Translations under genes and position numbers: made by a program
From: Ilumatobacter sp.
GTDB lineage: Bacteria; Actinomycetota; Acidimicrobiia; Acidimicrobiales; Ilumatobacteraceae
DNA: 64,000 bases
Direction: 5' to 3'
Assembly (NCBI GenBank): GCA_013002175.1
Contig: JABDKP010000038.1
Coordinates: 1,099 to 65,098, forward strand
Shown here: piece after piece, positions 23,898 to 36,602 of the stretch
How the letters are laid out: each line of letters begins with the position of its first letter
Position numbering within the stretch: the stretch's first letter is position 1
Notes under the pieces: generated by a model
The model's database searches: none
Seen by the model: only the letters and a program-made list of their open reading frames with translations
Told to the model about the DNA's origin: nothing

Positions 23898-24473
23898 TCA
23901 GCCGTGGGTCGCCAGGAACGCGAGCGTGCGCTCGAGCATCAGGCCGTAGAGCGCGGCGTCGTACTCGCGCCAACTCGAATCCGCGACGAGGTGTCCCGAC
24001 GACTCGTAGATGTACAGCTCACCCGGCCCGCCGTTGGCGCTCGACAGCGCATCGATCGCCTCCATGTCCTCGGCGGCGAACTCGTCGCCGTCCGCGATGT
24101 GCATCTGCAACGCGACGCCGTCGGGCCAGCGGCCGCCGAACATCTCCGGCGGTACGGCCGAGTGATACAGCACTGCGCCGCGGACGCCGGGGCGGGTCTG
24201 GGCGAGTTTCTGTGCCGGCAGGACACCGAGCGAGAACCCCGCAACGAGGAGCCGGTCGCCGAGTCCGTCGGCGCACGAGACGCCACGCTCGATCACCGTG
24301 TCGAACCCGATCTGCTGCGCGTTGGCGACGCCGTCGGTGATCGAGTCGAACGTGTCCCCGTCGTAGAGGTCCGGTGTCGACACCGCATGCCCGGCGGCGC
24401 GCAGCCCGTCGGCGAAGGCCCGCACGCCGTCGGTCAACCCGAGTGCATGGTGGAACAACAGCACCTCAGCCAC
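23898..24473 (-). CDS. Dienelactone hydrolase family protein
   Basis: FHHALGLT, TPDLYDG, GFSLG, GHLVAD. Confidence 0.85.
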   Translation of the reverse strand: MAEVLLFHHALGLTDGVRAFADGLRAAGHAVSTPDLYDGDTFDSITDGVANAQQIGFDTVIERGVSCADGLGDRLLVAGFSLGVLPAQKLAQTRPGVRGAVLYHSAVPPEMFGGRWPDGVALQMHIADGDEFAAEDMEAIDALSSANGGPGELYIYESSGHLVADSSWREYDAALYGLMLERTLAFLATHG

Positions 24474-25215
24474 GCGGCGAGCGTAGACGCAGCTCAGCGT
24501 CCTCGCCAGCGCCGTCGGCGTGGAGGGCGGAACAGTGCGCGAAGTGGACCACCTGTGGGCGCAGCGCCTTCAACCTCCGGATCGACTCGATCGCGTCGCC
24601 GCGCCGTTCCTTGGCCTCGACATTGGCGGCGGTTGCGCGCTCGTCGCGGAACTCGTCGGCGTGCCACACGACCTGACCGGCGAGCACCGCACAGCCTTCG
24701 CCCGACTCGACGAGCACCGAGTGGTGTCCTGCCGTGTGCCCGGGCGTCGCCATGATCGTCACGCCCTCCGCGATCGCCAGGTCGCCGTCGACGGCGCGCT
24801 GTTGGCCAGTCGGAGCGAGCGCCCAGACCGGGTCGGTGTAGAACTGGTCGCGCTCGACGGCGTCGAGTTCCGCCTGCTGCACGTAGCACGGCACATCCGA
24901 CCCGTAGAACAGCGGATTCTGGCCGCAGTGGTCGAAGTGGAGGTGGCTGTTGACGACGGCGACCACATCGGCGAGTTCGATGCCGACCGCGTGCAGCGCG
25001 TCGTCGAGGCCGAGATGATCCGGTGCATACACCGCATCGATGAACTCGTTGTCGGCACCGACGCCCGTGTCGAACACGATCGCGCCGTCGGGGTGGTCGA
25101 TCACGTAGCCGTACACCGGAGCCGTCGGTGAACCCGCCGCTTCGGGATGCCAGGCCGGCAGGCGCAGCACGGCCAGATCGAGCCGCTCGATCCGGGGCAG
25201 CTGTTGCAGCGCCAT
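24466..25215 (-). CDS. MBL-fold hydrolase, N-acyl-homoserine lactonase family
   Basis: FDTG, NSHLHFDHCG, TPGHTAGH. Confidence 0.8.
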   Translation of the reverse strand: MALQQLPRIERLDLAVLRLPAWHPEAAGSPTAPVYGYVIDHPDGAIVFDTGVGADNEFIDAVYAPDHLGLDDALHAVGIELADVVAVVNSHLHFDHCGQNPLFYGSDVPCYVQQAELDAVERDQFYTDPVWALAPTGQQRAVDGDLAIAEGVTIMATPGHTAGHHSVLVESGEGCAVLAGQVVWHADEFRDERATAANVEAKERRGDAIESIRRLKALRPQVVHFAHCSALHADGAGEDAELRLRSPRG

Positions 25216-25245: not shown

Positions 25246-25845
25246 TCAGCCGGGCGTGGCGAGGGCTGCGCGCAGGAATGCCCGCAGCTCGTCGCGCAAC
25301 CGGCGCAGCCCGACGGCATCGGCGGTCCACCCGACCGCGCGCAACGCTTCCGGTTCGGTCGCGATCCCGGTCACGGTCGCATAGGCGAGCGCGGCGATGA
25401 TCTTCGGGTCACCACGGCGGAGCCGGCCGCGATCCATCTCCTCACCGAGGTAGCGGACCGCGCGATCGACGAGCGGGGAGATCATCACCCGCAGACGCTC
25501 GGCCTGCTCCGGACCGAGCCGGCTCACCTCGCGGACGAGTCCCAGCAGTGCGGGCCGCCGGACCGCCGGCCGGAACATCGCCCGCACGACTGCATCGATG
25601 CGGTCGAGCGGGTCGTCCGGTGCGGCGCGCACCGCAGCGTCGATGACGACGACGAGTTGTGCGGCGACCGATTCGAGCACGCCGTCGACGAGGTCGTCCT
25701 TTGACGCGAACCAGTAGAGGACGGTCTGTTTGCGCACCCCGACGACCCGCGCGATCTCGTCCAGCGACACCGCATCCACGCCCCGGGCGCCGAACAGATC
25801 GAGCGCTGCGTCGAGGATCCGCTCTCGCGTCGTCCGATCCGGCAT
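25246..25845 (-). CDS. TetR/AcrR family transcriptional regulator
   Basis: TRERILDAALDLF...SLDEIARVVGVRKQTVLYWFASK. Confidence 0.92.
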   Translation of the reverse strand: MPDRTTRERILDAALDLFGARGVDAVSLDEIARVVGVRKQTVLYWFASKDDLVDGVLESVAAQLVVVIDAAVRAAPDDPLDRIDAVVRAMFRPAVRRPALLGLVREVSRLGPEQAERLRVMISPLVDRAVRYLGEEMDRGRLRRGDPKIIAALAYATVTGIATEPEALRAVGWTADAVGLRRLRDELRAFLRAALATPG

Positions 25846-25873
25846 CCCCCCATCCTGACATGAAATCTGGCCG

Positions 25874-25895
25874 CTCTCTACCAATTGGTAGAGAG
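25874..25895. promoter_or_regulatory. Probable TetR operator, perfect 22-bp palindrome CTCTCTACCAATTGGTAGAGAG
   Basis: Perfect palindrome in the 70-bp gap between tetR and the lipid operon. Confidence 0.8.
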
Positions 25896-25915
25896 AGCTG
25901 CTAGAACAGACGACT

Positions 25916-28282
25916 GTGATCGCCGAGTCCCTCGCCGGGAAACGCATTGCCATCACCGGGGCAACCGGCTTCGTCGGCACCGCGCTCGTCGAGCGGCTGC
26001 TGCGGTCGGTCCCCGATTGTCAGCTCGTGCTGCTCGTCCGCGACGGCCAACGCACTCCCGCCGCGAGGCGGACCCAGCGCGAGATCCTGAAGAACGACGC
26101 GTTCGACCGGTTGCGCGCCGAGTTCGGCGACGAGTTCGACACCGCCGTCGCCGGCCGCGTCACGACGATCGCCGGTGACGTCACGATCGACGGCCTCGGC
26201 CTGAGCGACGACGACCGCGAGATCTTCCGAACCTGCGACACGATCATCCACTCCGCAGCCGCCGTGTCGTTCGACTCGCCGCTGCCGTCCGCGGTCGAGA
26301 TCAACCTGCTCGGCCCGACACGACTCGCCGAGCTGTGCCACGAACTCGGCACGACACCGCACCTCGTCGCCGTTTCGACGTGCTACGTCGCGGGCAACCG
26401 CCGGGGAAAGGCACCGGAGGAACTCGTCAGTGAGGGCCCGTTCGACATCGGTCTCGACTGGCGCAGCGAGGTCGCGTCGGCACGGCGGCTGAAGGGCGAC
26501 ACCGATGCCGAGAGCCGATCGGAGAAGAATCTGCTGCGGTTCCGCAAGGAGGCCCGCCGCGAACTCGGCGCGGCCGGCGCACCCGCGCTCGCCGCCAAGA
26601 CCGAACAGCTGCGCAACCGCTGGGTGAAAGCAGAGCTCGTGCAGGCCGGACGGTCGCGGGCCGCCAGCCTCGGCTGGCCTGACGCCTACGCCTACACGAA
26701 GGCGCTCGGGGAACAAGCGCTGACCGAGATCAAGGGCGACGTCCCGGTCTCGATCGTGCGCCCGTCGATCATCGAGTCGGCATGGGCCGAGCCCAAGCCG
26801 GGCTGGATCCGCGGCTTCCGAATGGCCGAGCCGGTGATCATCTCCTATGCCCGCGGGTTGTTGAAGGAGTTTCCCGGCGTGCCGGAAGGAACCGTCGACG
26901 TCATCCCGGTCGACCTCGTCGTCGCAGCGATCATCGGTGTCGCTGCCGCCGGACCCGAGCGGGCGCCCGCGATCACCCAGGTCGCGTCCGGCGGGATCAA
27001 CCCGCTGCGATACCGGACGATGGTCGATTTCGTCAGCAGCTGGTTCACGCGCAACCCGCTGTACGACAGCGACGGCCAGCCGATCATCGTCCCGACGTGG
27101 GACTTCCCCGGACGCGGTCGAGTCCAGAAACAACTGACGCGCGCCACGCGTGCACTCTCGACCGCCGAGAAGGCGCTCCATGCGTTGCCGCTGCGCGGCA
27201 AGCAGGCCGAGTTCGCGGCCACGCTGGAGAACCGCCGGATCGAGCTCGACGCCGCCCTCGAATACGTCGAGCTGTACGGGCTGTACACCGAGTGCGAGGC
27301 GATCTACCAGGTCGACAACCTGCTCGCACTGTGGGACTCGCTCGACGCGGCCGACCAGGAAGCGTTCTGCTTCGACCCGCGGGTCGTCGATTGGGACCAC
27401 TATGTCAACGAGGTCCACCTCCCGTCGATCGTGCAACACGCGCGGGTGAAGTCGACGCCCGGCAAGCACACGCCGATCGACCGGCCGGCCCGGCTGCGCA
27501 AGCAGGTGCTCGACCCGAAGCGCCACGTCGCGGCGTTCGACCTCGAGAACACGCTGATCGCGTCGAACGTCGTCGAGAGCTACTCCTGGCTGGCGACGCG
27601 CCGGCTCGACACGCCGGACCGTGTCCGGTACGTGCTGCGAACGCTGCTGGAAGCGCCCGGCCTGCTGCGGATCGACCGCCAGGACCGCACCGACTTCCTC
27701 CGCCACTTCTACCGCCGCTACGAGAACGCACCGGTCGAACAGATCGAGCACGACGCGCGGGAGATGATGACGCAGCTGATCATCACCAAGAGCTTCCCCG
27801 CCGGCCTGCGGCGCGTGCGCGAGCATCGCGCCGCCGGACACCGCACGATCCTGATCACGGGCGCCTTGAGCTTCAACGTCGAGGGGCTGCGGCCGCTGTT
27901 CGACGAGATCTTCGCCGCCGAGATGAGTGTCAAGCCCGACGGCACGTACACCGGCGAGATGCCGGTCGTGCCGCCCACCGGCGAGGCCCGGGCACAGCTG
28001 CTCGCCGACTACTGCGCGGCCGAGGGCCTGTCGCTGGACGAGTGCGTCGCCTACGCCGACTCGTCGTCGGACGTGCCGCTGTTCGAGGCGGTCGGGTTCC
28101 CGGTCGCGGTCAACCCGGAGACGAGGCTGGCGGCGATCGCCCGCAAGCGGGGCTGGCTCGTCGAGCACTGGTCGAAGGCATCCGGCTCGCCGCAACCGAT
28201 CCTCCCGATCGGCGAACTCCTCTCCGATCGCGAGCGAGTCGTCGTTGTGCCAGGCACGACGACGACCGGGGGGCGGCGATGA
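25916..28282 (+). CDS. Fusion: fatty acyl-CoA reductase (NAD_binding_4/male-sterility) + HAD-IB hydrolase
   Basis: ITGATGFVG, HSAAAVSF, YAYTKALGE, VRPSIIES, IPVDLV; C-terminal AFDLENT...ITG...YADSSSD...VAVNP. Confidence 0.85.
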   Translation: MIAESLAGKRIAITGATGFVGTALVERLLRSVPDCQLVLLVRDGQRTPAARRTQREILKNDAFDRLRAEFGDEFDTAVAGRVTTIAGDVTIDGLGLSDDDREIFRTCDTIIHSAAAVSFDSPLPSAVEINLLGPTRLAELCHELGTTPHLVAVSTCYVAGNRRGKAPEELVSEGPFDIGLDWRSEVASARRLKGDTDAESRSEKNLLRFRKEARRELGAAGAPALAAKTEQLRNRWVKAELVQAGRSRAASLGWPDAYAYTKALGEQALTEIKGDVPVSIVRPSIIESAWAEPKPGWIRGFRMAEPVIISYARGLLKEFPGVPEGTVDVIPVDLVVAAIIGVAAAGPERAPAITQVASGGINPLRYRTMVDFVSSWFTRNPLYDSDGQPIIVPTWDFPGRGRVQKQLTRATRALSTAEKALHALPLRGKQAEFAATLENRRIELDAALEYVELYGLYTECEAIYQVDNLLALWDSLDAADQEAFCFDPRVVDWDHYVNEVHLPSIVQHARVKSTPGKHTPIDRPARLRKQVLDPKRHVAAFDLENTLIASNVVESYSWLATRRLDTPDRVRYVLRTLLEAPGLLRIDRQDRTDFLRHFYRRYENAPVEQIEHDAREMMTQLIITKSFPAGLRRVREHRAAGHRTILITGALSFNVEGLRPLFDEIFAAEMSVKPDGTYTGEMPVVPPTGEARAQLLADYCAAEGLSLDECVAYADSSSDVPLFEAVGFPVAVNPETRLAAIARKRGWLVEHWSKASGSPQPILPIGELLSDRERVVVVPGTTTTGGRR
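28238..28266. repeat. Degenerate copy of the 29-bp palindrome inside the 3' end of the reductase-HAD gene
   Basis: GTCGTCGTTGTGCC-A-GGCACGACGACGAC; same length, ends and core; AAA/TTT replaced by complementary GTC/GAC. Confidence 0.6.
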
Positions 28283-29481
28283 GGGCATTGCAGGTCCGGC
28301 GGACGCCGGTGAAGCTCGGGATGGCGCGCATCACGTCGGCGCTGTCGCCGGCGGCCGCCGCCAAGGTCGGGCCGCTGGAGCTGCGGCGCATCGACGACCC
28401 GGTTCGGCCCGGCGGCCCCGATGCCGGCTGGCAGCAGGTCCACACCCGGCTGTCGGGGATCTGTGGATCGGACCTCGCGCTCGTCGACGGGCATGCGTCG
28501 ACCTACTTCGAGGACTGGGTCAGCTTCCCGTTCGTACCGGGCCACGAGGTCGTCGGCGAACTCGACGACGGAACCACCGTCGTGCTCGAACCGGTGCTCG
28601 GCCACGCCGCCCGCGGCGTCGCTCCCCCGTTCGACGGTGCCGCCCCGGGCGACGGCGACGACTACGCCCACCTCGCCACTCCGTCGGCCGACGGCCTGCT
28701 CGAGCCGGGCATCCAGACCGGGTTCTGCTGCTCGACCGGCGGCGGCTGGGCGCCCTGGTTCTGGGCCCACGACTCGCAGCTCCACCGCGTGGACATGCCG
28801 GACGAACGCGCCGTGCTCGTGGAACCGTTCGCCGCGGGGATCCACGCCGCGCTGCTCGCACTGCCGACGATCGACGGCGTCGACGACCCGATCATCGCCG
28901 TGCTCGGTGCGGGCACGATGGGCCTCGCCACCGTCGCCGGCCTCGCCCGCTACGTCCCCCACGCACAGATCGTCGTCGGCGCGCGCTACCCGCACCAGCA
29001 GGCCCTCGCCCGCGCGTTCGGCGCAACCGTCGTCGTCGCCGACCGCGAGTTGTTGCGCGCGGTTCGGCGCGCGGCCGGCTGCCACGTGGTGGGCGGGCAG
29101 CTCACCTCGGGCGCCCACGTCACGATCGACGCCGTCGGGTCCAACGCGTCCATCGGCGACGCGCTCGCGATCACCCGCCCCCGCGGGCGAGTCGTGTTGC
29201 TCGGCATGCCCGCCGACGTGTCCCTCGACCTCACCGGCCTGTGGCACCGCGAGACCGAGCTCAAGGGCGCCTACACCTACGGCACCGAAACGCTCGCCGA
29301 CGGCACCCGGCCGACCACGTTCCAGCTCGCGATCGACACCACGAACCATGTCGAGGCCGAACGTCTGCTGTCGGCCACCTACCGCCTCGACGACCACGTC
29401 GACGCGCTCGCCCATGCGGCCACTGCCGGCAGGCGCGGCGCCGTCAAGATCGCCTTCGACCTCAGGAACGCCACCTCATGA
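28279..29481 (+). CDS. Zinc-binding (MDR) dehydrogenase
   Basis: SGICGSD, VPGHE, GAGTMG; structural-zinc cysteines absent; ATGA overlap with upstream gene. Confidence 0.88.
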   Translation: MRALQVRRTPVKLGMARITSALSPAAAAKVGPLELRRIDDPVRPGGPDAGWQQVHTRLSGICGSDLALVDGHASTYFEDWVSFPFVPGHEVVGELDDGTTVVLEPVLGHAARGVAPPFDGAAPGDGDDYAHLATPSADGLLEPGIQTGFCCSTGGGWAPWFWAHDSQLHRVDMPDERAVLVEPFAAGIHAALLALPTIDGVDDPIIAVLGAGTMGLATVAGLARYVPHAQIVVGARYPHQQALARAFGATVVVADRELLRAVRRAAGCHVVGGQLTSGAHVTIDAVGSNASIGDALAITRPRGRVVLLGMPADVSLDLTGLWHRETELKGAYTYGTETLADGTRPTTFQLAIDTTNHVEAERLLSATYRLDDHVDALAHAATAGRRGAVKIAFDLRNATS

Positions 29482-29491
29482 CCCCTGCCTC

Positions 29492-29549
29492 CCCCAAAAT
29501 CTGCCGCTCTCGCTGCGCCCAGCGGGCTGAGATCGCCAAATTTCGGATG
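29492..29549. repeat. ~58-bp imperfect hairpin repeat (family 2, copy B)
   Basis: CCCCAAAATCTGCCGCTCTCGCTGCG...GAGATCGCCAAATTTCG; similar to 8771-8828. Confidence 0.75.
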
Positions 29550-29569
29550 ACGACCGGAGATTTACGCTG

Positions 29570-31156
29570 ATGCCCCGCCCAGGATTCGTGCTCGACGTCG
29601 ACCGTTCCACCCCGCCGATGCTGTTCTGGCGCGGCGAGAACTTCAGTCTGGAAAAGCTGCCGGCCGACCGCACCCGCGTGATCTACCCGCCCGAGCCGTT
29701 GCCCGGCATCGACGACGTCGACGGCGCGATCCGCAACGCGCTCCTCAACCCACTCGACATGGACCCGCTGCCGGCGTTGCTGACACCCGGGATGAAGCTG
29801 ACGATCTGCTTCGACGACGCCAGCCTGTCGTTGCCGAAGATGCGCCGGCCCGACACCCGCCAGCGAATCATCGAGGCGGTCCTCGAACTCGCCGCAGAGG
29901 CCGGCGTCGACGACGTGCACCTGATCGCCGCGCTCGGCCTGCATCGGCGGATGCACGACTACGAGCTGCGCCACGTGCTCGGTGATCGGATCTTCGACGC
30001 GTTCCACCCCCGTGGCCTGCTGTACCAGCACGACGCCGAGGACTACGACAACCTCAGCGTGATCGGCGAGACCGACGAGGGCGAAGTCGTCGAGATCAGC
30101 AAGCGGGTCGCCGAGTCCGACCTCGTCGTCTACGCCAACATCAACCAGGTCGCGATGGACGGCGGGTGGAAGTCGATCACGACCGGTGTCGCGTCGTATC
30201 GCTGCCTCAGCTACCACCACAACCCGGCGACGTTGCAGAACACGCGCAGCCTGATGGACCGTCACCACAGCGCGCTCCATCACAGCCTGTGGCGGATGGG
30301 CGAGGTGCTGCGCGAGCACGGGCCGAAGATCTTCACCGTCGAGACCACGCTCAACACCGACACCTTTCCGTCGCCGTTCGACTTCCTCGCCAAGCGCGAG
30401 TGGGAGTGGACGGCGAAGGACCGGGCGACGTTCCTCGCGACGCAGAAGTCGCTCGACCGCGTGCCGGTCAAGATGCGGCGCAAGATCATGCACAGCATCG
30501 AGTCGCCCTACCGGATGACCGGCGTCCACGCCGGGTTCACGCCGACCGTGCACGAGAAGACGCTCGAGAACGTCTATGCCCAGCACCTCGTCGACGTGGA
30601 GGGGCAGACCGACATCCTCACGATGGGCATCCCCTACATCTGCCCGTACAACCCCGAGGGGATCATGAACCCGATCCTCGTGATGTGCATGGGCCTCGGC
30701 TACCTGTTCAACATGTATCGCGGCAAGCCGTTGGTCCGCGAGGGCGGCGTGATCATCATGACGCACCCGACCTACCGCGACTTCCACTCGGTGCACCACC
30801 CGAGCTACATCGACTTCTTCGAGGAGGTGTTGCCCGACACGACCGACCCGGCCGTGATGTCGGAGAAGTGGGAGGCCAAGTACGCCGAGGACGAGTGGTA
30901 CCGCCACCTCTACCGCACCGGCAACGCCTATCACGGCGTCCACCCGTTCTATGCCTGGTACTGGGGCGCTCACGGCCAGCAGCACGCCGGCCGGGTGATC
31001 ATCGTCGGCGGCGACGCACCGACCGTTCGCCGCCTCGGCTTCACGCCGGCGTCGACGATGAACGACGCCCTCGAGATCGCCGCCGACGTCGTCGGACGGT
31101 CTGCGTCCATCACCCACCTCCACGTCCCCTCTGTCCTCGTCGCGGACGTCAAGTAG
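29570..31156 (+). CDS. Lactate racemase (LarA/DUF2088) domain protein of unknown substrate
   Basis: ALGLHRRM, HDAED, DGGWKSITTGVASYRCLSYHH, KPLVREGGVII. Confidence 0.8.
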   Translation: MPRPGFVLDVDRSTPPMLFWRGENFSLEKLPADRTRVIYPPEPLPGIDDVDGAIRNALLNPLDMDPLPALLTPGMKLTICFDDASLSLPKMRRPDTRQRIIEAVLELAAEAGVDDVHLIAALGLHRRMHDYELRHVLGDRIFDAFHPRGLLYQHDAEDYDNLSVIGETDEGEVVEISKRVAESDLVVYANINQVAMDGGWKSITTGVASYRCLSYHHNPATLQNTRSLMDRHHSALHHSLWRMGEVLREHGPKIFTVETTLNTDTFPSPFDFLAKREWEWTAKDRATFLATQKSLDRVPVKMRRKIMHSIESPYRMTGVHAGFTPTVHEKTLENVYAQHLVDVEGQTDILTMGIPYICPYNPEGIMNPILVMCMGLGYLFNMYRGKPLVREGGVIIMTHPTYRDFHSVHHPSYIDFFEEVLPDTTDPAVMSEKWEAKYAEDEWYRHLYRTGNAYHGVHPFYAWYWGAHGQQHAGRVIIVGGDAPTVRRLGFTPASTMNDALEIAADVVGRSASITHLHVPSVLVADVK

Positions 31157-31168
31157 AGACGTTCGACG

Positions 31169-32167
31169 ATGGCCAAGAAGTCGCTCCGCCGGGCCCAGCA
31201 GCTCGCGGGTTCCGCCGAGCAGGCGGTGCGCGCCGCCGCGACCCCGCTGCGCAACTTCGGCTTCCCGTACCGCGCTCCGACCGTGCCCCGTGGCGTCGAG
31301 GTGCCCGCCGAGATCACCGGGCTCGGCGCCCACTATGACACCGGCTGGGCGCGCCGGCCGGTCGCGTCGTTCGCCCGCGGGCTCATCACCGAGGGGCCGA
31401 TCCGACTCGCGACACGGCTGCTCACCAACCCGGAGATCGTCGGTCACGACCGGCTGGCCGACCTCGCCCGCCTCGACGACCCTCCCGCGCTGATCTTCGC
31501 GCCGACGCACCACAGCCACTTCGACACCGGCCTGATGATCCGCGCGATTCCAGTGGTGTGGCGGCGCGACCTCGTCGTCGCAGCGGCTGCCGACTACTTC
31601 TTCGACAAGAAGTGGAAGGCCGCGATCTCGGCGCTGTCGTTGAACGCAATCCCGATCGACCGTGAGGTCACCGGGCGCGCGTCGTCCGACCTGCTCGCCG
31701 CGCTGATCGCTGACGGCCACAGCCTGGTGATCTACCCGGAGGGCGGCCGTTCCCAAGACGGATGGGGCCAGGAGTTCAAGGGTGGCGCCGCCTACCTGTC
31801 GTCGAAGACCGGTGCACCGGTCGTGCCGGTGTTCATCGACGGCACGGGGGCGATCTTCGGCAAGGGGATGAAACGGCCGAAGCCCGGCCGGACGAAGGTC
31901 GTCTTCGGCCGGCCGATGCTGGCGGACGACGACGAGTCGACCCGCCGCTTCAACGCCCGGATCGAACGCGCGGTCACGACACTGGGCGACGAAGCGCTGA
32001 CCGACTACTGGACCGCTCGGCAACGGGCGGCAACGGGCGACAACCCGCCGCTCACCGGTCCGGAGTTCACCGGCTGGCGTCGCGACTGGGCGCTCGCCGA
32101 TCGCCGCAAGCTCGGTGCGGCCGGCAAACGCCGCCGTCAGCAGCGTCCCTGGCCCGACCTCGGCTGA
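31169..32167 (+). CDS. PlsC-type lysophospholipid/glycerolipid acyltransferase
   Basis: HHSHFD (HxxxxD), YPEGGRS, PVVPV. Confidence 0.9.
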   Translation: MAKKSLRRAQQLAGSAEQAVRAAATPLRNFGFPYRAPTVPRGVEVPAEITGLGAHYDTGWARRPVASFARGLITEGPIRLATRLLTNPEIVGHDRLADLARLDDPPALIFAPTHHSHFDTGLMIRAIPVVWRRDLVVAAAADYFFDKKWKAAISALSLNAIPIDREVTGRASSDLLAALIADGHSLVIYPEGGRSQDGWGQEFKGGAAYLSSKTGAPVVPVFIDGTGAIFGKGMKRPKPGRTKVVFGRPMLADDDESTRRFNARIERAVTTLGDEALTDYWTARQRAATGDNPPLTGPEFTGWRRDWALADRRKLGAAGKRRRQQRPWPDLG

Positions 32168-33293: not shown

Positions 33294-35129
33294 TCACCAG
33301 GTGTCGACATTCGGACGCAACCGACCACTGACTGCGGGCGCCGCCGCGAGCAGGATCGTCAGCCATCGGCGTGTGTCGGCGGGGTCGATCACGTCGTCGA
33401 TCTCGAAGTGGGTCGCCACGCTGACCGCCTTGCCGTGCTCGTACATCCGGTCGACCAACTCGGCGAACAGCGCCTCGCGACTCGCGTCGTCGCCGGCTGC
33501 GTCGAGCTCCCTGCGGTACCCGAGGCGCACCGCGCCCTCGAGGCCCATCCCGCCGAACTCCCCGGTCGGCCAGGACAGGCACGCGAGTGGTGCCTTGGTC
33601 GATCCGCCCATCATCGCCTGCGCGCCGAGCCCGTACGCCTTGCGCGTCACGACCGACACCATCGGTACCGAGACGTTCGCTCCGGTGACGAACATGCGGC
33701 TGCAGTGGCGCACCAGCGCCGTCTCCTCCACCTCGGGCCCGACCATCATCCCCGGCGTGTCGCACAGCGTGATGATCGGCAGGCCATGCGCGTCGCAGAG
33801 CTGCATGAACCGGGCGGCCTTGTCGGCGCCGTCGGAGTCGATCGCGCCCGCGAGGTGGTGCGGGTTGTTGGCGATGACGCCGACCGCCCTGCCTTCGAGA
33901 CGGGCGAACGCCGTGACCATGCCGAGCCCGAAGTCGCGACGCAGCTCCAGCACGGAGTCGCTGTCGAACAGGCCGCTGATCACGCGCCGGATGTCGTACG
34001 CGCGCAGCCGGTCGAGCGGCACCATGTCGCGCAGTGCCGTCTGGTCCGGTGCGGTCCACCCCGTCGTCCGGCCCTGGAAGTACGCAACACACCGTTTCGC
34101 CAGCGCGGTCGCCTCCGCCTCGTCCGCCGCCACGATGTCGACGACGCCGTTCGTCCGCTGGACGTCGATCGGGCCGATCGCACCCGGCTCGAACACGCCG
34201 AGGCCGCCTCCCTCGATCATTGCCGGACCGCCCATCCCGATGTTCGAGTCCTCGGTGGCGATCACGATGTCGCAGCAGCCGAGGATCGCGGCGTTGCCGG
34301 CGAAGCAGTAGCCGGCGTTGACCCCGATCAGCGGGACGGTTCCCGACAGTTGCCCGAACCACAGGAACGCGAGGCAGTCGAGCCCGCTGACACCGATGCC
34401 GTCCGTGTCGCCCGGGCGGCCGCCACCGCCCTCGGTGAAGAACACGAGCGGGATCCGCAGCTGCTCGGCGAGCTCGAACAACCGGTCCTTCTTGCGATGG
34501 TTCTGCGTGCCCTGCGTGCCGGCGAGCACCGTGTAGTCGTACGACAGCGCCACCACCTTGCGGGCCCGCTCGTCGGGGAACAGCTCACCGTTGACGTCGC
34601 CGAGCCCGCCGATCAGGCCGTCCGCGGGAGTGTTGGCGATCAGGTCGGCGAGCTCACGCCGTCGGCGCTGTGCAGCGATCACGAGCGGCCCGTACTCGAC
34701 GAACGTGCCGTCGTCGACGAGGTCGGCGACATTCTCGCGCGCGGTGCGCCGACCCCGCTCACGTCTCCTCGCGACGGCGTCGGGGCGCGCCACATCGAGG
34801 CCCGCCGCATGCCGGCCGATCACCTCGGCCACGTCGGGGCGATCGAGCCCGCGGGGGCCGTCCCGGTCGAGCGCAGGTGGCGGCAGCATCGCAGCGCCGG
34901 CTCCGCCGGGGTCGTCGAGCAGGAACAACGAGTCGCCGACCGCCAGCGTCGACCCCTCGGCCACCTTGATCGACGCGATCACGCCGTCGGCCGGCGCAAC
35001 GACCTCGTGGTGCATCTTCATCGACTCGACGAGCGCCAGCACGGAGCCGAAGCGGACCGGCTCGCCAGGCCGCACGAGCACCGACACCACGGTCCCGTGC
35101 AGTTGCGACTCGACGACGATGCCCATCAT
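33294..35129 (-). CDS. Biotin carrier + carboxyltransferase fusion (no biotin carboxylase domain)
   Basis: N-terminal ESMKM; DYTVLAGTQG, EGGGGRPGD, CFAGNA, DTPGMMVG, RKAYGLGA. Confidence 0.88.
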   Translation of the reverse strand: MMGIVVESQLHGTVVSVLVRPGEPVRFGSVLALVESMKMHHEVVAPADGVIASIKVAEGSTLAVGDSLFLLDDPGGAGAAMLPPPALDRDGPRGLDRPDVAEVIGRHAAGLDVARPDAVARRRERGRRTARENVADLVDDGTFVEYGPLVIAAQRRRRELADLIANTPADGLIGGLGDVNGELFPDERARKVVALSYDYTVLAGTQGTQNHRKKDRLFELAEQLRIPLVFFTEGGGGRPGDTDGIGVSGLDCLAFLWFGQLSGTVPLIGVNAGYCFAGNAAILGCCDIVIATEDSNIGMGGPAMIEGGGLGVFEPGAIGPIDVQRTNGVVDIVAADEAEATALAKRCVAYFQGRTTGWTAPDQTALRDMVPLDRLRAYDIRRVISGLFDSDSVLELRRDFGLGMVTAFARLEGRAVGVIANNPHHLAGAIDSDGADKAARFMQLCDAHGLPIITLCDTPGMMVGPEVEETALVRHCSRMFVTGANVSVPMVSVVTRKAYGLGAQAMMGGSTKAPLACLSWPTGEFGGMGLEGAVRLGYRRELDAAGDDASREALFAELVDRMYEHGKAVSVATHFEIDDVIDPADTRRWLTILLAAAPAVSGRLRPNVDTW

Positions 35130-35187
35130 GTGACGGTCTAGCCGAACCGGGTCGGTCGACCGCGAGACGGAGACGCACCGCGCGCAG

Positions 35188-36504
35188 TCAGTTCGTCGGA
35201 GAACGCTGGAACGTCGTGATCGACTGCTCACCCATCACGAGCTCGGCGGTCACCGCGGCGAACAGCGCCGGCACGATGAACCCGGGCTGCCCGGTCGTCT
35301 CCGCGACGAACATCACGGCGGCGAGCGGCACCCGGTAGCCCGCGCCGAGCAACGCCGCGATGCCGAGCAGCACATACAGCGTCGGGTCGAGCGGGTTGAC
35401 CACCTCGCCGACCGCACGGCCGACGAGCGCCCCGCCGACGACGAGCGGGATGAACACACCGCCCACCCCGCCGCCTGCCAACGTGGTCGCCGTGGCAAGA
35501 CAGCGGATGAAGAGGATCGCGATCAGCAGCCACAGCGCACGTGGCTCCAACAGCCAGCCGAACACGTTGTAACCGGGACCGAGGGTGAGGCTCTGCGGGC
35601 CGGCCTCCGAGCCCAGTGCGAGGCTGTCACCGGTGAGGATCCGGGTCAGGACGAACAGGCCGGTCAGCATCGAGCCGGTCACGGCGAGACGGGTCACGAT
35701 CGGGCGCAGCGTGAACGCCTTGGCCATCCGGACCAACTTCGAGAACGCCCGCGCGCCGAGCGCACACCCGATGCCGATCAACACCGCGCCGGCGAGGTCG
35801 CGGTACTGGAACGCCGACGCGCGGTCCGGCGGGAACAGGAAGATCGGCCGCACGCTGCTGAGCGCGACGAACGTGGTGTACCCGGACGCGCTCGCGACGA
35901 GCGCCGGCAGCAACATCCGTCGTGCCATCTGATCGCGGTACGGCACCTCGAGCGCGAAGATCGCGCCGGTTGCCGGCGCCTTGAAGATCGCCGCAACGCC
36001 GGCGGCCGCTCCGGCAACGAGCAGCGTCCGGTAGTCGGCGCCCTTGAAGGCGGCCGGCAGCCGGCGCTGGATGAACGAGCCGATCGCCGAGCCGCCGTAG
36101 AGGGACGGGCCTTCCAGGCCCACCGCGCCGCCCATCCCGAGCGTCGTGATCGACGCCGCAATGCGGCCCATGAACGCCCGCGGCCGCAGCGGATACTCGG
36201 GGTCGTGGAACGCTCGGAGATACTCGTCCGACGTCGCCGGGCTGGCGCCGTTGCCCAGCGTGCGCAGCAGCACCGCCGAGGCGACCAGCCCCAGGCCGGG
36301 CGCAATTGCGGCGAACCAGAGCGGACCGTGCAACACCCGCTCGAATGCCACCTCGGCGACGACGTACTCGAAGAACCGCACGAACAGGCCCGTGATCGCG
36401 CCGGTCACGGCTGCGAGCAGGACGACCTCGCGGGAACGGCGCACGAGGTCGCGCAGCTCGGTGGTGCGGATGTTGAAGTTCGTGGGACGCAGCTTCGTCG
36501 TCAC
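35188..36504 (-). CDS. CLC-family chloride channel/transporter
   Basis: [32 protein letters not shown]; start uncertain. Confidence 0.85.
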
Positions 36505-36602
36505 TCGCTGGCTCCACACGGCGGCGAAGTCTACGCGGCGCAGTGGACGTCGCCCCGACCGTCCCCGATTCAAAGGTGCTGGTCCTCGTACACTTCGCTT
36601 CC

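Follow-up and report, generated by a model that had tools for sequence, protein, structure and literature searches.

A TetR-flanked four-gene operon in an Ilumatobacter genome and its candidate role in the formation of alkyl glycerolipids

We analyzed a 64-kb stretch of DNA from Ilumatobacter sp. (contig JABDKP010000038.1), referred to here as the window, and within it an operon of four genes. These encode a fatty acyl-CoA/acyl carrier protein (ACP) reductase (FAR) fused to a HAD-IB phosphatase (FAR::HAD), a zinc-dependent medium-chain dehydrogenase/reductase (MDR), a homologue of LarA (LarAH) and a PlsC-type acyltransferase. A gene for a TetR-family regulator lies divergently upstream, and the operon is considered here as a candidate pathway to ether lipids (Table 1). 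The source assembly comprises 3.3 Mb in 191 contigs, with a completeness of 89%. Because the G+C content of the window is ∼68%, spurious frames crowd lists of open reading frames (ORFs). Genes were called from the third-position GC (GC3) profile together with Pfam and NCBIfam scans. By these scans and a check of the palindrome, the genes, the divergent TetR and the perfect 22-bp palindrome that the first-pass annotation had described were all found where it had placed them. The ATG of gene 2 overlaps the stop codon of gene 1 (ATGA). Two frames from the ORF list, 28421-29530 and 27927-29570, were considered for gene 2 and rejected, as they have no Pfam match and run against the GC3 profile. A simple promoter and terminator scan of the locus found nothing useful.

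Table 1. Features of the operon and its regulator in the window
Feature	Position	Strand	Basis and remarks
TetR-family regulator, 199 aa	25246-25845	-	TetR_N 48 bits, TetR_C_24 weak; divergent from operon
Perfect 22-bp palindrome, probable TetR operator	25874-25895		11+11 nt self-complementary
Gene 1, fatty acyl-CoA/ACP reductase::HAD-IB, 788 aa, GTG start	25916-28282	+	Pfam, NCBIfam
Gene 2, zinc MDR dehydrogenase/reductase, 400 aa	28279-29481	+	GC3 frame; ADH_zinc_N, ADH_N
Gene 3, LarA homologue (LarAH14/15/16), 528 aa	29570-31156	+	Lar_N, NF052592
Gene 4, PlsC-type (lysophospholipid/GNPAT-like) acyltransferase, 332 aa	31169-32167	+	PF01553 54 bits

In gene 1, the reductase occupies residues ∼1-510 and the HAD-IB hydrolase residues ∼536-750 (NAD_binding_4, 200 bits; Sterile, 35 bits; HAD PF12710, 95 bits; also TIGR01490 HAD-IB). 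Its FAR domain belongs to the 'male sterility' type, which forms alcohols. Motif conservation was assessed in an alignment of 18 sequences. The Rossmann TGxTGF and YxxxK motifs of the FAR are conserved, as are HAD motifs I and IV (FDxE/DxT and YADSxSD), with an invariant nucleophile Asp and either Glu or Asp at the Asp+2 position. Invariant in the MDR are GICGSDL, PGHE, EP and GAGxxG, which make up the zinc site and the NAD motif, and the acyltransferase keeps its HxxxxD and PEGxRS blocks. Judged from these alignments, the catalytic motifs of all operon enzymes are intact. The nearest NCBIfam models to the MDR, all scoring far below their cut-offs, describe polyol, sugar-acid and secondary-alcohol dehydrogenases. 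The named proteins closest to it, secondary-alcohol and polyol(-phosphate) dehydrogenases, make the enzyme a better fit for reducing a keto intermediate than for reducing a fatty aldehyde.

Gene 3 encodes the best-conserved protein of the operon, with 139 of 528 residues invariant. It matches Lar_N (PF09861) with 121 bits and, over its full length, NF052592 with 867 bits against a cut-off of 740, a model that NCBIfam names 'NPN-dependent hydroxyacid isomerase, LarAH14/15/16 family', where NPN is the nickel-pincer nucleotide cofactor. Both the domain architecture and the cofactor residues of the LarA superfamily are present: D83, H125, K201 and H217 are invariant and correspond, in L. plantarum numbering, to Asp72, His108, the tethering Lys184 and the nickel ligand His200. 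The loop at the His174 position is shortened and has no His (I191-Q193). LarA homologues have been split into 25 groups (Desguin et al. 2020, PMC7583248). Group 14 contains YM304_22240 of Ilumatobacter coccineum, to which gene 3 is ∼85% identical by eye, along with Afer_1430, Franean1_4168 ('LarAH14'), Kfla_3040, Noca_2000 and Rxyl_2107 (PMC7583248). In the row for YM304_22240 (D L H - - Q K H ... N), R75 is replaced by L and K298 by N, and groups 14 and 15 are also reported to have no His174 (PMC12611868). The gene 3 group therefore does not show the two catalytic histidines with Arg75 and Lys298 that mark a LarA acting on 2-hydroxy acids. Among solved structures, the nearest are those of the single-histidine group 17 enzymes, 9q2u and 9q3j (E 4e-36, with alignment across both domains). 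Gene 3 is the only LarA homologue in its genome, and its closest relatives come from isolates and metagenome-assembled genomes of Ilumatobacter and Ilumatobacteraceae, in the class Acidimicrobiia. A separate search for homologous proteins likewise returned only close Ilumatobacteraceae as best matches and added no further context. One unusual relative, a protein of 947 aa (P0187) from marine/TARA metagenomes (L142:2400-5243, L143:784-3627), joins a LarAH (37% identity) to a chlorophyll a/b-binding domain and is probably from a eukaryotic alga.

To place the operon in its phylum we drew on a sample of 401 genomes, 98 of which have an NF052592 match above the cut-off. The counts include two genomes flagged as unpublished (G088 and G318, the latter one of the 31 genomes of family f24), and those given below for LarC include three more (G001, G048, G120). 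Apart from the place of G318 in the f24 count, no single finding depends on these genomes. The matches are concentrated by family: 31/31 in f24, 20/21 in f23, 10/10 in f21 and 20/22 in f27. We then compared gene neighborhoods of 19 kb around the LarAH gene in 20 genomes. FAR::HAD and MDR stand beside LarAH, in the same order, at all 17 loci with a high-scoring LarAH, spread over many families of Actinomycetota, and PlsC is adjacent at 15 of these loci. In the remaining three genomes, whose LarA homologues score lower, neither FAR::HAD nor MDR is linked in this way. The four-gene arrangement is far beyond chance, because its order recurs in 17 of 17 distant genomes and the operator core described below is conserved with it. 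The conserved linkage that the first-pass annotation had put forward as a check is thus borne out for FAR::HAD, MDR and LarAH at every locus and for PlsC at most. Cultured carriers of the operon occur in Ilumatobacter, Nocardioides, Kribbella, Frankia, Acidimicrobium and Rubrobacter.

The regulator and its likely binding site are part of this pattern. The palindrome, CTCTCTACCAATTGGTAGAGAG, has 100% complementary arms without a spacer and sits in the middle of the 70-bp region between the TetR gene and gene 1; the operator core is TACCAATTGGTA. The protein and its site have the form expected of a TetR-type repressor, with a helix-turn-helix (HTH) at the N terminus and an inverted repeat as operator in the interval separating divergent genes. 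No NCBIfam equivalog model scored above its cut-off for the TetR. A start at GTG 25980 was also considered for this gene; the HTH would then begin 45 residues in, and ATG 25845 is the likelier start. The TACC-N4-GGTA pattern occurs once in the whole window. A homologous TetR gene adjoins the cluster in 12 of the 17 relatives, in divergent or downstream position, and in all 12 the locus contains TACC-N4-GGTA, only at 16-64 bp upstream of the FAR::HAD start; this placement holds for divergent and downstream TetR genes alike. All five loci without a TetR gene lack the motif. From base composition, ∼0.2 matches would be expected by chance in each 19-kb locus. This conservation forms a strong phylogenetic footprint and points to control of the operon by the TetR.

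The relation of gene 3 to the elb genes of myxobacteria runs through two neighboring genes of M. xanthus, MXAN_1529 and the FadD-like MXAN_1528, the latter of which we take to be ElbD. Group 15 of the LarA homologues includes MXAN_1529 and STAUR_2303, with a gene context of 2x COG0451, COG0560 and COG1022 (PMC7583248). In a review of bacterial ether lipids, the elb operon is described as consisting of elbA and elbE for NAD-dependent epimerases/dehydratases of the short-chain dehydrogenase/reductase (SDR) type, elbB for a HAD-like protein, elbD for a FAR-ACS-ACP-AT protein (ACS, acyl-CoA synthetase; AT, acyltransferase), and elbC, a 'protein of unknown function' adjacent to elbD (PMC9131029). 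Because MXAN_1529 neighbors the FadD-like gene and elbC adjoins elbD, we infer that ElbC is almost certainly MXAN_1529, a group 15 LarA homologue. This assignment rests on the published context and on our presumed locus tag for ElbD. The LarA-like protein, which the first-pass annotation had left unexplained, can be placed in LarAH14/15/16, the family of this putative ElbC.

A second line of evidence for the elb link is independent of locus tags and comes from an exhaustive HMMER search for LarAH relatives. One of these, P0129, is 43% identical to gene 3 and keeps the H125, K201 and H217 residues. Its gene lies directly upstream of a gene for a 1561-aa protein with the ElbD architecture (NAD_binding_4+AMP-binding+PP-binding+Acyltransferase), which is followed by an SDR gene. 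The homology to elb that the first-pass annotation had asked about was therefore found twice for gene 3, by family membership and by P0129, and it extends to the HAD, FAR and AT modules, which have elb-type counterparts at loci L140 and L147. At these two loci, the FAR regions of the ElbD-like and FAR::AT proteins share 30-35% identity with that of gene 1, and the stand-alone, ElbB-like HADs share 30-33% with its HAD part.

Locus L147, where the LarAH is P0123, has the order MDR, LarAH, a gene resembling diacylglycerol (DAG) kinases, FAR::AT, HAD and PlsY. Identities to the window's proteins are 35% for FAR, 33% for HAD, 38% for MDR, 50% for LarAH and 34% for AT, with E values from 1e-25 to 1e-77. 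The MDR match covers the full length, and the MDR gene of L147 is translationally coupled to the LarAH gene; gene 4 matches the AT portion of FAR::AT. On this evidence, the MDR is part of the conserved set beyond the Actinomycetota too. At L140:7144-13084, an elb-like trio of genes encodes a stand-alone HAD, a LarAH and a 1166-aa FAR-ACS without a recognizable acyltransferase domain. A low-GC lineage (40%) has TetR, FAR::HAD, LarAH and AT genes and no MDR gene (L137:5032-12373). A TACCAAATGGTA-like site is present inside the TetR spacer of L137, and two genes without a Pfam match (388 and 240 aa) follow the operon there. The gene downstream of LarAH at L145 has no similarity to the window's proteins, and the contigs of P0125, P0126 and P0159 are too short for informative context. 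The repeated re-fusion of the same modules, as FAR::HAD, FAR::AT and FAR-ACS-ACP-AT, is strong evidence that they serve one pathway acting on a glycerol-phosphate lipid.

Taken together, these data lead us to favor, with moderate confidence, a reading of the locus as a TetR-repressed operon for precursors of 1-O-alkyl glycerolipids, in an actinobacterial rearrangement of the elb set. An ether-lipid product, which the first-pass annotation had proposed, appears likely from the gene content; the proposal had exposed itself to failure on two points, elb homology and conserved linkage, and it came through both, with a closer tie to elb than it had assumed. In the scheme that we envisage, the FAR domain would convert a long-chain acyl thioester to the fatty aldehyde or alcohol. 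An acyltransferase would supply or finish the glycerol-phosphate lipid, this being PlsC here, PlsY in Rubrobacter and an AT domain elsewhere. The single-histidine LarA homologue would use NPN for a hidden-redox reaction on C2 of the glycerol phosphate backbone, enabling formation of the ether bond. This step could take either of two forms. In variant (a), 1-acyl-glycerol-3-phosphate would be transiently oxidized to the level of acyl-dihydroxyacetone phosphate (acyl-DHAP), undergo an acyl/alkyl exchange like that of AGPS, and receive its hydride back. In variant (b), the hydride would move from C2 to the hemiacetal carbon of the fatty aldehyde, yielding alkyl-DHAP. The zinc dehydrogenase would then reduce the resulting keto intermediate, a task that would fall to the SDR-type ElbE or ElbA in myxobacteria, and the HAD-IB domain would remove a phosphate. 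The TetR would leave TACCAATTGGTA on binding a lipid-like ligand.

A single-histidine NPN enzyme seems suited to abstracting a hydride from a carbinol and returning it to the same face or to a neighboring carbon, a kind of return anticipated by Desguin et al. (PMC7583248). We tentatively extend this idea to the elb pathway as a whole: an ElbC/LarAH14-type protein might be the enzyme, so far missing, that makes the ether bond in aerobic bacteria without AGPS, working through a redox-neutral, NPN-based 'borrowed hydride'. This more specific proposal is possible rather than probable.

The Rubrobacter carriers connect the operon with lipid measurements. At L047 (genome G011, f24), LarAH shares ∼95% of its residues, by eye, with Rxyl_2107 of Rubrobacter xylanophilus, and on this basis f24 is the Rubrobacter family. 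We considered that L047 might come from the same strain as Rxyl_2107; exact peptides were unmatched, and at ∼95% identity the source is instead a congener. The genes at L047:8749-18122 are CorA, PlsY, FAR::HAD, MDR, protoglobin, MarR, GAF, MOSC and LarAH, and the inserted genes together with CorA may provide oxygen- or redox-sensing control and a supply of metal. In 2023, Sinninghe Damste et al. reportedly proposed for the Rubrobacterales a putative operon for 1-O-alkyl glycerol phosphate resembling that of other aerobic bacteria. The core lipids of the Rubrobacterales are ∼46% ether-linked (PMC10821996, citing Sinninghe Damste et al. 2023, Syst Appl Microbiol 46:126404).

Genes for the NPN cofactor were also surveyed. 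LarE is present in the window's genome with 296 bits. Its gene (L002:1408-2979, contig C77 of genome G000) stands away from larB and larC and is followed by genes for a ComB-like 2-phosphosulfolactate phosphatase and a luciferase-like monooxygenase. LarB, LarC and LarE are all present in 5/5 complete relatives. In the Acidimicrobiia of the sample, 17 genomes have both LarAH and LarC, 13 have neither, and there are no exceptions. At two loci of family f20 (L043, L044), larE, larB and larC lie directly downstream of plsC.

Several observations weigh against the operon making 1-O-alkyl glycerolipids by an NPN-dependent route. As to the cofactor, searches of the 89%-complete source assembly found neither LarB nor LarC, and neither was detected in four of five near-complete f27 carriers of the operon (G014, G387, G183 and G116; completeness 94-98%), in which the H125, K201 and H217 residues are intact. 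In f27 as a whole, LarAH occurs in 20/22 genomes of the sample and LarC in only 12/22. Two distant homologues have lost cofactor residues in the same gene context: at L137, H125N and H217Q, and at L140 all three positions, with R, N and M in place of H125, K201 and H217. As to the chemistry, the Frankia LarAH14 was inactive in seven racemase/epimerase assays (Desguin 2020, PMC7583248), and variants (a) and (b), while conceivable, come from chemical reasoning only. As to the product, in M. xanthus only elbD and possibly elbE are tied to ether lipids and the effects of elbB insertions are ascribed to polarity, according to the elb review, which reports no test of elbC (PMC9131029). Pontiella has elbD homologues, yet ether lipids were undetected in it, and elbD homologues are thus no guarantee of such lipids. 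Our literature search returned no link of Ilumatobacter or Acidimicrobiia with ether lipids.

The Pontiella case would be accommodated if the operon made an ether-free lipid derived from fatty alcohols: the alcohols themselves, wax esters, or a polyol or hydroxy-acid lipid carrying acyl groups. In that event, the role of the LarA homologue would be to epimerize or isomerize a hydroxylated head-group precursor, made ready by the dehydrogenase and the phosphatase. A FAR and an acyltransferase are the minimal set for wax-ester-type products, the substrates of characterized LarA homologues are small 2-hydroxy acids and sugar acids, and the polyol and sugar-acid dehydrogenases nearest to the MDR in NCBIfam point the same way. 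We nevertheless consider such a product unlikely. The acyltransferase belongs with PlsC and GNPAT rather than with the WS/DGAT wax synthases, and the association of the modules with PlsY and a DAG-kinase-like gene points to a glycerol-phosphate backbone. Its tie to elb links the LarAH family to the one member set that has been studied genetically, and what was studied there is ether lipids. The Rubrobacter carriers are rich in such lipids. Finally, R75, H174 and K298, the residues that bind and racemize 2-hydroxy acids, are missing from the group.

The cofactor data bear on another possibility, in which the LarA homologue serves as a subunit that has no catalytic role or works without NPN, perhaps as a scaffold or by binding lipid in partnership with the reductase and the acyltransferase, and any ether chemistry is done by the FAR, MDR and AT. 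Homologues that have lost H125, K201 or H217 keep their gene context, f27 genomes retain LarAH without LarB or LarC, and group 16 of Frankia has Gly at the position of the tethering Lys. Against this, the cofactor residues are invariant in 18 distant sequences of the window's operon type, the protein is the most conserved of the set by its 139 invariant residues, its co-occurrence with LarC in Acidimicrobiia is without exception, and larEBC is joined to the operon in f20. We give this explanation little credence for the window. Dependence on NPN is well supported in the window's lineage; it is not universal for the family, because there are f27 carriers without LarB and LarC and distant members without the cofactor residues.

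The LarA homologue might instead invert or isomerize C2 of a lyso-glycerophospholipid or of glycerol phosphate, giving an unusual backbone stereochemistry or 2-keto/2-hydroxy glycerolipids, with any ether bond made by another enzyme. LarA chemistry, the abstraction and return of a hydride at a carbinol carbon, would allow this, and a keto-reducing MDR beside LarAH could supply the second face. The published work, moreover, did not establish the backbone stereochemistry of Rubrobacterales ether lipids. In the published view, however, an enzyme with a single catalytic histidine is unable to carry out inversion in both directions, and none of the architectures seen links the genes to another candidate for ether formation. 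CarF (PF10520) had no match in the genome; the control had none either, which makes this result uninformative. All told, we find a pure C2 isomerase quite improbable, and we retain the alkyl glycerolipid reading.

How much of this is new can be stated fairly closely. Group 14 is labeled 'unknown function' in PMC7583248, and its gene context is tabulated there without interpretation: COG0204 (PlsC), COG0560 (HAD) and COG1063 (Zn-dehydrogenase) in 88% of its members, and COG3320 in 50% (Table S1, PMC7583248). The novelty is lower than the first-pass annotation implied, since the group 14 context was already known (PMC7583248) and the ether-lipid reading had probably been proposed for the Rubrobacterales. 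Our literature searches found no paper joining DUF2088 with ether lipids, none of relevance for DUF2088 together with fatty acyl-CoA reductase, and no connection between ElbC and nickel-pincer enzymes. Since no paper in the searched literature joins the first two terms, the nickel-pincer and ether-lipid fields appear to be unconnected.

The locus joins two questions, namely how the ether bond forms in the ElbD route without AGPS, and what LarAH groups 14-16 do. If the proposal is true, these orphan single-histidine groups would gain a function, the ElbD pathway would be explained, and the known chemistry of the nickel-pincer cofactor would be widened. The genes would also serve as markers by which non-isoprenoid alkyl glycerol ethers found in sediments and soils could be traced to their bacterial producers. 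Because the set is compact, with four separate, soluble-looking enzymes, one repressor and cultured carriers, it offers a practical system for reconstitution.

On one side of the operon is a gene for a lactonase-like protein of the metallo-beta-lactamase fold (24466-25215, - strand; AiiA-like, 107 bits, far below the cut-off), and on the other a 'putative cyclase' gene (PF04199; 32228-33187, - strand); neither is kept beside the operon in other genomes. Beyond the cyclase gene, a single 645-aa ORF (33294-35231, - strand) encodes both a biotinyl/lipoyl carrier domain and a carboxyltransferase domain. This ORF and a CLC channel gene (35188-36573, - strand) are kept beside the operon in a genome of the same genus (L037). 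The stretch is also present in beach-sand metagenomes, and no RNA data set was listed as carrying it.

Among known LarA proteins, gene 3 falls in the same orthologous group as group 14, by its signature residues (D, H108, K184 and H200 kept; H174 absent) and by its context. The reading given here differs from the group 14 paper (PMC7583248), which draws no link to lipid or elb genes. Gene 3 also resembles the group 17 proteins LarA(Sp) and LarA(Bw) (9q2u, 9q3k, 9q3j; PMC12611868) in its length of ∼500 aa and its one catalytic His, and the NPN-tethering Lys and the Asp are kept in both. At the His174 position, however, LarA(Sp) and LarA(Bw) carry Asn, whereas the loop of gene 3 is shortened there, and their gene context is glycolytic or carbohydrate-related whereas that of gene 3 is lipid-related.

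The Rubrobacter-type locus L047 shares FAR::HAD, MDR and a group 14 LarAH with the window. It differs in that PlsY precedes these genes, four regulatory or sensor genes lie between MDR and LarAH, and PlsC and TetR are not adjacent. In the aerobic eukaryotic/MXAN_1676 route (FAR1, GNPAT, the flavoenzyme AGPS and acyl/alkyl-DHAP reductase), the reductase, acyltransferase, keto-reductase and phosphatase can be matched to the window. AGPS is in no cluster seen, and a LarA-family protein stands in its place; AGPS, Ger and PlsA were not searched for genome-wide. The FAR::AT fusion of L147 resembles MXAN_1675.

Another close parallel is with elb itself. The elb operon (Lorenzen et al. 2014, via the review PMC9131029) and that of the window have in common a HAD-IB protein, a LarAH14/15/16 protein, a FAR and an acyltransferase of the PlsC/GNPAT type, and each includes a dedicated NAD(P) oxidoreductase. 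The ACS/ACP-bearing ElbD and the SDR proteins ElbA and ElbE have no equivalent of their own type in the window's operon. There, the oxidoreductase is a zinc MDR rather than an SDR, the acyltransferase is a separate protein, and the FAR is fused to the HAD, whereas in elb both the AT and the FAR are domains of ElbD. Pfam and NCBIfam scans found no AMP-binding or PP-binding domain in genes 1-4, unlike in ElbD, in agreement with the architectural difference that the first-pass annotation had pointed out. The TetR and its operator are a further feature that sets the window's operon apart from elb.

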